This document shows positions 1-3,000 of a DNA stretch of 64,000 nucleotides, piece after piece. The stretch's first letter is position 1. Every line of letters starts with the position of its first letter. The position numbers are program-made. This stretch comes from Escherichia coli (GTDB taxonomy: Bacteria > Pseudomonadota > Gammaproteobacteria > Enterobacterales > Enterobacteriaceae): NCBI RefSeq assembly GCF_016026235.1, contig NZ_CP065613.1; one strand, given 5' to 3'.

Positions 1-3000
1 TCATTGCTGAGTTGAGAATGTACGCCATTGCGCTGGTTTTAATGAAAGCCACTGGAGGACTTGAAACCGCCATAGTCTGTGCGCTTCAGGCAGAAGGTTT
101 TGAGCTTGCCGTGGTTAACCCCAGACAAGCTCGTGACTTTGCCCGCGCCATGGGATACCTCGCGAAAACTGATAGTATTGATGCCAGAGTGCTTTCCCAG
201 ATGGCTGAGGTTCTCAACCGGCATCCGGAGCGGGAACGCTTTATCAGAGCACTGCCGGATACTGAATGTCAGGTTCTCACTGCAATGGTAGTTCGTAGGC
301 GGCAGTTGATTACGATGCTGGTTGCCGAGAGAAACCGGTTGCACCCTGCTCATCCATAGAACAGGAAAAGCATTAATATCATCATCAAAGCACTGGAAGA
401 CGAGCTTGCGCGACTAGATGCTGACATGAACAGCCATATCCATAGCCACTTCAAAGAGCTTGCTAAGCGACTGAGCAGTATTAAAGGTGTTGGCACCATG
501 ACGGCTGCTGCGCTGCTGGCGGAAATACCCGAACAGGGTAACCTCTCCAGGCGTGAAATCAGTGCGCTTGTCGGTATGGTTCCAGTAAACCGGGACTCGG
601 GCACGATGAGAGGGCGACGAACCATCTTTGGCGGCAGGGCTGGTGTGCGAACAGCCCTGTACATGGCAGCGCTTGTCGCAACCCGCTTTAACCCGGTAAT
701 AAAGGTGTTTTACATGCGACTGCTGGCCGCAGGAAAACCCAAAAAAGTGGCGCTGGTTACCTGTATACGCAAGCTGCTGACTATCCTGAACGCAATGCTC
801 AGAAAGAACGAAGAATGGAATGAATCGTACCATCACGTTGCTCCATAATTTTTACGTGCAAGACAGTTGCTGAGCTGTCCGGGGAAGACTGAATCCTCCG
901 GTCTGGCAGTGTGTGCAGTACCACTCCCCATAATAATCGTGGTGACATTGTCTGCAGTGCCAGCTGGCTTTACGCACCACGGGTAAGGCATCCGGTACGA
1001 ATTGCTGCAGACGTTTAATCAACTGTATTTCTCTGCGCTCCGGCCTGACATAAGGGCACTGTTGACCGTGCTCTGTCAGCCTGTCGTCAGTGTGTTCAAA
1101 CCAAGGAAGTTCAGTGTCGTATTGCGGATGGTATCTGAGTGCACTGCCACACAAGTGGCAGGTGTAGTTAGCATAAGGTGCGGCCTGTGCTGTACGGGCG
1201 CCCGTCAGACGTCCGTTGCCATCAAGAGCGATAAAGGATTTTGCGTACATAGTCATATTCCTCAGCCGCCAGACGACACGCAGGCAACAGCCGTCCCGGT
1301 ACGGGCAGCGTGGTCCGGTGTGAATGGCGGTTTCAGTTCAGTCTCAGAAGGGAAAATCAGTGTGGTGGCCGTGAACACGTCATCACACTGAAGTCAGATA
1401 ACTCGTCTGTCTGGCTCAGCCACGACTGCAGCCAAAGTTGCGCTCACCGGTGCAGTGAGCTTTGGTATGCTCCTTCGCCAGATAGTCAGCACGTTCCAGC
1501 ACTTGCTGAAAGCCGGTGTCATCATTACGCGCCAGCCACACCGCCGGCCAGGCCGGAAAATGCACCAGCGTGGCATGGCACCCGACATCCACTCCCAGGG
1601 CACTGCACCACGCCTGTTTAATCATCCCGGCCAGTGATCCCGGAGCGCGGTAATCACCGGCACGACACCAGGTATCCCGGTTGACCAGCAGCATCAGGTG
1701 ATAGTGTTTTTTACCTTTGCACTCCCCAAACTCCCGGGCCCAGACGTAATGCAGGGTTGTGGGATGCACGCGTTTACCTTCCCGATGCTTACGTTTCTGG
1801 TAAGCGTCGATTCGGGCTTTCAGGGCATTGATGAAGCGGGATATCACAGCTGCGTCCGTTGCTGCCGGTACATCCGGGAGACGCAGGTCAACCCGCAATG
1901 CCGTCAGGCGGGGATGAACATTCAGTGCGTGCCGCACCGTCTCACGAATACGTTGCTGCCAGAAGGGGTTGTATTTGTAGGTCATGGTTAAATCTCCGTA
2001 TGGTTCATACGGAATAGCCACGTCGTAAAAAATGCGCAGAGTCCCTGAAGTGACCTCCGGCAGGACACTGTCTCAGGCACTCTGTGATAACCCGAACGGT
2101 CGTCTCCGGACTGACGGTTGAATTTTCAGCGTTGTTTTTTAATGTAAAAAACCGGTTACGGGTAAGGCTGTGAGGAGGGAGTTATGGTGATACGCAAAAA
2201 GAAGTGCAGGGACTGTGGAAACGCGATTACTCATAATACAGTGTGTTGCCCGTATTGTGGTTCTGTCGACCCCTTCGGCTACTACCGGAATACAGACCGT
2301 ATCGTTACCATACTGCTGGCGCTGATTATTGTGGTCCTGCTGACTACTGTCAGCGTCAGTGTGTGTATACTGTGTAGCTGGTGAGATAACGGTTCATGTA
2401 TCCCCTGAGCTGACAGTGTACCGTGTATATTAAGCGTAACCGACAGGTTCTCCTTCATACCATATTAAATTTTTCCAGGTATTGCCGCTGCCTTATTTCG
2501 TCCCATACAGGAAAACTCATCTGGGTTTCTGACAAATACGCGAAACTCACAGCCCCTCAATATCAACCACACGTTGTAAGCCGGTAATACCTGAAAATCA
2601 GCCTATTACCGCCCACGCCTCCGGCACCATTCCCTTTTGATTTCGAATTCTTTGTTGTCGCTATACCGCTTAATGTTCCCGGTCCTCCGGTGCAGATAAC
2701 ACCGGAGTCATCGTAGCGCTGCTTCAATATTCAGGTGACATATTTCCAGACAGAAGCCGGCGCGCGATCGTAAAGTTTGTTCATTGTCAGTTCTGCCAGC
2801 CGGTTGTCAACGGCAGAGTTAAAGGCTTCCAGCTCCGCAAGGGTAAGTTTATAACGCGTGTGGGAATTCACTTTTCCCGCGTCTCCTGACGTATTACGGG
2901 CTGCCACTTACCTGGTGTCCCGCAATACAGCCTTAGTGTTCCGTTATCGGGGATCCGGACGCACCGCAACAACCGGGGAAGTATTTCTGGTTTAGAGCAG

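Follow-up and report, generated by a model that had tools for sequence, protein, structure and literature searches.

A probable dead relative of ISKpn42-like IS110 elements in an Escherichia coli island, with an amber codon and a substituted catalytic glutamate in its recombinase gene

Introduction

It has been shown that elements of the IS621/IS110 subgroup encode bridge-RNA recombinases in which a RuvC-like DEDD domain is combined with a coiled coil and a Tnp domain carrying a catalytic serine (PMC11208160, PMC11208158), and a CT dinucleotide at both junctions has been described as a signature of IS110 elements (PMC11208158, PMC11208160). In IS621, the RuvC domain covers residues 1-122, the coiled coil residues 123-188 and the Tnp domain residues 189-326 with the catalytic S241, and mutation of E60 abolishes recombination (PMC11208158).

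The element considered here lies at the very beginning of a stretch of 64,000 nucleotides of Escherichia coli DNA (assembly GCF_016026235.1, contig NZ_CP065613.1), which is referred to below as the window. It shares with IS621-type elements the domain layout of the recombinase, a closely similar size (322 amino acids versus 326 in IS621), a long left end (about 175 nt), a short right end (about 23 nt), a CT core at both junctions, the lack of terminal inverted repeats, and left-end loops that appear to co-vary with the flanks of independent insertions. On the other hand, it is only about 30% identical to IS621, it has a stop at codon 160 and a lysine in place of the E60 equivalent, and it is single-copy and immobile, with a site between two zinc-ribbon genes and not in REP sequences.

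The closest described relatives are the ISKpn42-like IS110 elements of Enterobacterales, which likewise have 322 codons, a length of 1166-1167 bp and the termini TGTATCTTGA...GACAGTTGCT, and which are 81% identical to the E. coli element in DNA and 78-87% in protein. Examples include WP_004213807.1 on the Klebsiella-type plasmid p130-1 and copies in Salmonella, Providencia and Serratia. These copies differ from the E. coli element in being intact, with Gln160, Glu56 and a dN/dS of about 0.09, and in occupying other target sites with matching guide-like loops. A search of the literature on ISKpn42 returned only surveys in which the name is listed. By the ISfinder convention, elements bear the same name at roughly more than 95% amino acid identity. 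At 83% identity to the protein (P0089) that one source names ISKpn42, which is a source-given name and not the ISfinder reference, the E. coli element would not be ISKpn42 itself. Among 5.8 billion proteins no intact relative above 90% identity was found, the values dropping from 98-100% (the same E. coli locus) to 87%; the E. coli clade thus appears as an orphan lineage whose intact relatives reach at most 87% identity among the proteins searched.

The locus is already known as a pseudogene, annotated in RefSeq with an internal stop in hundreds of genomes, and it is in that sense a routine IS pseudogene. The reading to which we assign a probability of about 0.9 is that the window holds the 3' four-fifths of a dead, single-copy IS110-subgroup element, a relative of the ISKpn42-like group, which was inserted once, acquired at least two lesions and has since drifted neutrally.

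Gene structure and genomic context

Positions 3-848 of the window (plus strand) constitute a single reading frame of 282 codons, corresponding to codons 42-322 of a 322-codon IS110-family recombinase. The frame ends with TAA at 846-848 and its sole internal stop is TAG at 357-359, after which AAC at 360 directly resumes the frame, so that the ORFs 12..359 and 426..848 belong to one and the same frame. A random sequence of 282 codons should contain about 13 stops (3/64 per codon, uniform composition); with a single internal one, the frame is clearly coding. In agreement with this, tblastn with an intact homologue produces one alignment that spans the stop (82.6% identity, residues 42-322). Base 1 of the window is base 122 of the CDS, meaning that the window opens inside codon 41; the first 41 codons and the left end of about 175 nt lie upstream, and the truncation is one of the window, not a biological one. 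The parts of the gene present in the window are as follows.

1..356, plus strand: pseudogene, part before the stop (codons 42-159 from base 3), with the RuvC-like DEDD domain and the first half of the coiled coil
45..47, plus strand: AAA, encoding Lys56 where the DEDD motif has its catalytic Glu (IS621 E60)
171..182, plus strand: D98-S-I-D101 (GAT AGT ATT GAT), the third and fourth DEDD residues (IS621 D102/D105), kept and invariant
357..359, plus strand: amber stop TAG, codon 160; Gln in relatives, with TTG (Leu) and TAT (Tyr) alleles at the same locus
360..848, plus strand: pseudogene, part after the stop (codons 161-322 and TAA), with the second coiled-coil helix and the Tnp domain
597-599, plus strand: TCG, catalytic Ser240, which aligns with IS621 S241; Ser is invariant among homologues

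The full CDS (969 nt) was read from E. coli genomes that are 99.8% identical over window positions 1-900 (L001:2880-3848), the first 41 codons being taken from the genome copy L001, which is more than 99% identical. The reconstructed protein matches the Pfam family DEDD_Tnp_IS110 (PF01548) at residues 9-155, of which 42-155 lie within the window (E = 8e-19, 68 bits against a cut-off of 29), and Transposase_20 (PF02371) at residues 196-278 (E = 2.5e-19), the latter domain being located 3' of the stop. It also aligns over its entire length with two bridge recombinases of solved structure, IS621 and ISCro4 (HMMER, E of about 1e-29 to 6e-30; IS621 = 8wt6_A, E = 6e-30), and in RefSeq the same locus is a pseudogene, labelled 'IS110 family (RNA-guided) transposase' and noted to have an internal stop. 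The gene at window positions 1-848 is an IS110-family transposase. The initial annotation had described it as such, with a single in-frame amber codon; the Pfam matches bear out the family and TAG is indeed the only stop in the frame, but the start of the gene lies upstream of the window. According to the alignment with IS621, codon 160 lies midway along the coiled coil, and the stop consequently removes the entire Tnp domain, including the conserved Ser240.

The complete element measures 1167 bp (TGTATCTTGA...GACAGTTG-CT), and the two junctions of the occupied site each contain the CT, reading ...CCTC-CT-TGTATC... and ...ACAGTTG-CT-GAGCTG. Within the window, the core CT occupies 870-871 and closes the element, and the right flank begins at 872. 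The uninterrupted site is found in about 3000 E. coli genomes as TTTCCTC-CT-GAGTTGT; in strain T16R this empty site is TTCGCATATTTCCTC-CT-GAGTTGTCC and lies where two zinc-ribbon (DUF7828/Zn_ribbon_11) genes overlap by 13 nt. Because the insertion took place about 20 nt before the native stop, the end of the adjoining zinc-ribbon gene is supplied by the IS. The surroundings correspond to a CP4-44-like island next to yeeA-sbmC-dacD-sbcB, which also contains Ag43, YeeU/CbtA and several other IS elements. The following features mark the right end of the element and its flank.

849..871, plus strand: right non-coding IS end, delimited by comparison of the occupied with the empty site and by the element ends in five independent copies
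863-869, plus strand: ACAGTTG, putative left-donor guide match, also present inside the left-end RNA region
872..880, plus strand: right half of the chromosomal target (GAGCTGTCC); GAGCT is the reverse complement of AGCTC on the 3' side of the putative target-binding loop
852..1256, minus strand: zinc-ribbon (DUF7828/Zn_ribbon_11) gene adjoining the IS, whose last codons and stop (852-871) come from the IS right end

The left end, which lies outside the window, was read from near-identical genomes, and five independent insertions of this element group were compared. The 3' loop motif matches the right flank exactly in three of the five insertions (AGCTC/GAGCT, ATATC/GATAT and CGGTA/TACCG) and with one mismatch in the other two, while the 5' loop motif matches the left flank at seven of seven positions in L003, six of seven in L031 and 4-5 of seven in E. 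coli. In addition, the sequence ACAGTTG in the left end is that of the right-end terminus. Such a pattern of loop and flank matches would resemble the target and donor guides of a putative bridge RNA. A consensus fold of the five left ends contained one compensatory pair only, the sequences being too few and too similar to establish a structure. Scanning the whole element against Rfam 15 at permissive thresholds gave no match, and hence no curated RNA family for the left end, and a by-eye search for a promoter across the RE-LE junction revealed no convincing -35/-10 spacing.

The 71-mer around codon 160 occurs exactly once per genome in all 665 complete E. coli genomes that carry the element, always on the chromosome, and every copy inspected sits between the same two zinc-ribbon genes. 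Longer searches returned extra places, which are partial matches to other IS110-family genes.

The amber codon and the residue it replaces

Prevalence was determined as exact matches to a 71-mer around codon 160 in 5426 complete E. coli genomes, 12% of which (665) carry the element. The TAG version is present in 467 of the 5426 and the TTG version in 193, with five further genomes holding other variants. The CAG version has no exact match in any complete E. coli genome, the pre-mutation state being encountered only in other genera and on plasmids. A similar picture was obtained for 17 metagenome contigs (16 TAG, one TTG, no CAG and no other variant), and TAT (Tyr) was seen at codon 160 in one metagenome copy (L023). 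That the TAG of this window stems from faulty sequencing or assembly has a negligible probability, given that the identical 71-mer recurs in 467 independently sequenced complete genomes and that TAG is also present in 16 metagenome contigs; such an error is excluded and the TAG allele is real.

Alignment with intact IS110 copies demonstrates that TAG replaces a glutamine codon. Codon 160 is CAG in the outgroup copies L003 and L027 and CAA in L030, all of them read as DNA, and Gln occupies residue 160 in 103 of 104 homologous proteins of 78-87% identity. As the codon specifies Gln in intact relatives, TAG represents a nonsense lesion, in line with the nonsense inactivation that the initial annotation had offered as one of two explanations. 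It had also been considered that the two ORFs might be separate proteins; homologues are, however, single proteins of about 322 amino acids (nearly all of those at 78-87% identity have 318-325) and none of them is split in two. An independent C-terminal protein starting at ATG 426 was considered as a candidate and rejected, there being no Shine-Dalgarno-like sequence upstream and no constraint on that half.

The TTG allele of the same locus (WP_000081848.1, WP_089607038.1, WP_038349051.1) belongs to an element more than 99% identical, with the same Lys56. It differs in encoding Leu160 in an open frame annotated by RefSeq as an intact transposase, and in most cases also by G10D in the otherwise invariant GIDVSK motif. 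All eight TTG copies that were read have Leu160 and an open 322-codon ORF, and four of them, from complete genomes, are annotated as intact genes. An ORF that stays open over 322 codons could hint at constraint, although at a divergence below 1% it is expected by chance.

A second lesion and the loss of constraint

Within the E. coli clade, Lys56 (AAA) was found in 25 of 25 DNA copies and 16 of 16 proteins, open TTG ORFs among them, while Glu is present at this position in 103 of 104 outgroup proteins, with GAA, GAA and GAG as the outgroup codons read. The DEDD tetrad (D11, E60, D102 and D105 in IS621) is thus incomplete, as D12, D98 and D101 are kept and the E60 equivalent is Lys56; Ser240 is kept as well. 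By homology with the E60 mutants of IS621, an enzyme of about 30% identity and not this protein itself, we infer that Lys56 is a second inactivating lesion, which would have arisen by a GAA to AAA change. The commonest residue of the clade also departs from the outgroups at 15 further positions whose conservation there is 95% or more.

Leaving codon 160 aside, 17 nonsynonymous and two synonymous changes have occurred within the clade, with a distribution of 8:0 in the part preceding the stop and 9:2 in the part following it. Intact relatives have a dN/dS of 0.08-0.09, and the 17:2 ratio has a probability of 6.6e-10 under the outgroup value of 0.09, whereas it is compatible with neutrality (P = 0.13). 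Both halves of the pseudogene are decaying, without purifying selection, which counts against readthrough as well as against a functional split protein or domestication. The amber codon is not the sole lesion either, as the initial annotation had implied, since Lys stands for the catalytic Glu in every copy and the changes in the clade are mainly nonsynonymous. A 1-nt deletion in the metagenome copy L015 was considered as a further instance of decay and set aside, its coverage being only 1.45x.

It could be argued that TAG is decoded, through readthrough, an amber suppressor or recoding, to yield a full-length functional recombinase at a low and regulated level, considering that there is only one stop, that the frame downstream is open for 162 codons and that, of the catalytic residues, Ser240 and three of the DEDD tetrad are kept. 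This is highly improbable. Functional homologues have a sense codon (Gln) at this position and not a conserved stop, the catalytic Glu is Lys, so that by analogy with IS621 a full-length product should be inactive too (PMC11208158), and nonsynonymous changes prevail in both halves (8:0 and 9:2). Furthermore, the element is present as one copy per genome at one locus, with no sign of transposition, and a scan of the 64-kb window for tRNA genes found none, and hence no local amber suppressor. The alternative expression mechanism that had been proposed alongside nonsense inactivation is accordingly not borne out: intact homologues have a sense codon, constraint is lacking on either side of the stop and the window holds no tRNA gene.

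Order of changes at codon 160

The order of events was addressed by means of a polarity table of 21 variable sites in 25 copies of the E. coli clade, with three outgroups. The clade falls into two groups, one with 117G and the ancestral 880G and the other with 117C and the derived 880A. TAG is found in both the 880G and the 880A group, while TTG and TAT are confined to the 880A group. In terms of mutational steps, CAG to TAG requires one (a transition) and CAG to either TTG or TAT two, while TTG and TAT are each one step away from TAG. The most parsimonious arrangement of these roughly 25 sequences, with two informative sites, suggests that the E. coli clade started out with TAG and that the stop was lost later on, in TTG and in TAT. 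The inactivation would then hardly be the recent one that the initial annotation had offered as an option, TAG being common to 467 complete genomes and to both sub-lineages and apparently ancestral to the clade.

The reverse order, in which an open TTG (Leu160) ORF is ancestral, having arisen through CAG to CTG, and TAG is a later nonsense change spread by recombination, would make this a younger pseudogene. TTG to TAG is likewise a single step, the TTG copies are annotated as intact genes, and sites 29 (G10D) and 479 occur in all four combinations (G10 or D10 with TAG or TTG), meaning that recombination or recurrent mutation has occurred and that alleles have been reshuffled or repeatedly mutated. 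We consider this order unlikely all the same, as it takes at least four steps instead of three and TAG would have to enter both the 880G/117G and the 880A/117C backgrounds, with TTG confined to one. In addition, TAT (L023) is one step from TAG and two from TTG, no CTG or CAG allele was seen among the 665 genomes, and E56K and the excess of nonsynonymous changes are common to both allele classes. From this last point it follows that function was probably lost before the two classes split, whichever of the two histories applies.

One might envisage that the element has been domesticated, the N-terminal fragment or the full-length TTG/TAT protein serving as a catalytically dead RNA-guided DNA binder that, for example, regulates the flanking zinc-ribbon genes. 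There are two independent stop-removing changes (TTG and TAT) at one codon, 12% of E. coli genomes retain the element, at a single locus, and the left-end loop still matches the right flank (AGCTC versus GAGCT). Domestication nevertheless appears very unlikely, for purifying selection is absent within the clade (17:2), all changes exclusive to TTG copies are nonsynonymous (S35I, P156L, A181T, A229V) and most TTG copies, along with some TAG copies, have G10D in an invariant motif. Retention is explained by linkage to the island, and under neutrality a pseudogene's stop should be lost by mutation in one lineage or another. Slightly less credible still is the more specific proposal that selection has favoured TTG and TAT as reversions from the ancestral amber, by which the host would benefit from a full-length dead (Lys56) IS110 protein such as an RNA-guided DNA binder at the zinc-ribbon junction; were it true, the TAG allele of the window would represent the unrepaired state.

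Discussion

The preferred reading, that of a dead element which was inserted once and then drifted, can be set out as a sequence of steps. A single insertion would have occurred in a CP4-44-like E. coli island, where two zinc-ribbon genes overlap, and from the matches between loops and flanks we infer that it apparently proceeded by RNA-guided recombination at the CT core. In the ancestor of all sampled E. coli copies, the recombinase would then have been lost by at least two changes. One of them, Gln160 (CAG or CAA) to TAG, would truncate the protein in the coiled coil, with loss of the Tnp domain and the catalytic serine; the other, from the catalytic Glu56 (GAA) to Lys (AAA), would affect the DEDD active site. 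Afterwards the element probably drifted neutrally and was inherited with the island, the stop apparently moving onward to TTG (Leu) in one sub-lineage (193 complete genomes) and to TAT (Tyr) in a rare one. These last changes reopen the frame, yet the predicted product would still be without the catalytic Glu.

This history has consequences for annotation, as the 193 copies that appear intact very probably encode a dead enzyme (Lys56), and an open ORF should not be equated with activity. The locus would also illustrate, clearly and on a small scale, how the stop of a pseudogene decays further into sense codons. From a more practical perspective, the left end, the CT core, the empty site and the guide-like loops may constitute a natural target/donor pair for an ISKpn42-like bridge recombinase, which could possibly be revived in this element by means of K56E and *160Q. 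As an IS pseudogene the locus is only mildly unusual, in that the stop has apparently become a sense codon in a third of the carriers and that the resulting open, 'intact' ORFs still lack the catalytic Glu.

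Insertion into a zinc-ribbon gene pair

The first IS110-family element of the window lies exactly where two tandem zinc-ribbon genes (DUF7828/Zn_ribbon_11) overlap by 13 nt. The two genes stand side by side in approximately 3000 E. coli genomes, where they are probably translationally coupled. The genes concerned are:

window 852-1256, minus strand: zinc-ribbon gene (DUF7828/Zn_ribbon_11) beside the first IS110 element
L033 (compared locus) 184-983: tandem zinc-ribbon pair (DUF7828/Zn_ribbon_11)

Through the insertion, the upstream gene acquires a different C-terminus and is parted from the downstream gene, whose ribosome-binding site now adjoins the left end of the IS.

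IS110-family copies and their decay

At the same locus in some other E. coli the transposase frame is reopened (L004, L005, L028 and L029). Two alleles of codon 160 restore it: TTG (Leu; 193 complete genomes) and TAT (Tyr; one metagenome contig, L023). The reopened copies read from complete genomes are labeled by RefSeq as an intact 'IS110 family RNA-guided transposase'; in these 'intact' copies, however, Lys stands in place of the catalytic Glu, and the majority also have G10D in the invariant GIDVSK motif.

A second IS110-family pseudogene is present in the window:

window 18724-19752, plus strand: 99.7% identity to a CDS of strain C51, labeled 'frameshifted; internal stop' by RefSeq

This copy is not kin to the first element, and tblastn with the latter (E <= 1e-3) did not recover it, the divergence being too great. 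It is much more heavily decayed than the first element, retaining a single 129-aa C-terminal ORF (19363-19752).

Other insertion sequences in the island

IS3-family and IS21-like elements were located by comparison with other strains:

L034 (compared locus) 3119-4447: IS3-family element near an Hha/YmoA-like gene remnant, strain C51
L001 (near-identical genome copy) 6753 onward: IS3-family element annotated nearby in strain CFSAN061763
window ~11167-13747: IS21-like ISEc12 segment (istA/istB) within an Ag43/Cah autotransporter gene, from comparison to C51

Compared with these two IS3-family loci, the window lacks such an element at the C51 position (~3113), so that IS content is the main way in which the island varies from strain to strain. 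The two halves of the C51 Ag43/Cah gene match the window on either side of ISEc12 (8196-11166 and 13747-15907), so that this adhesin gene appears, from the alignment, to be interrupted in the window's strain.
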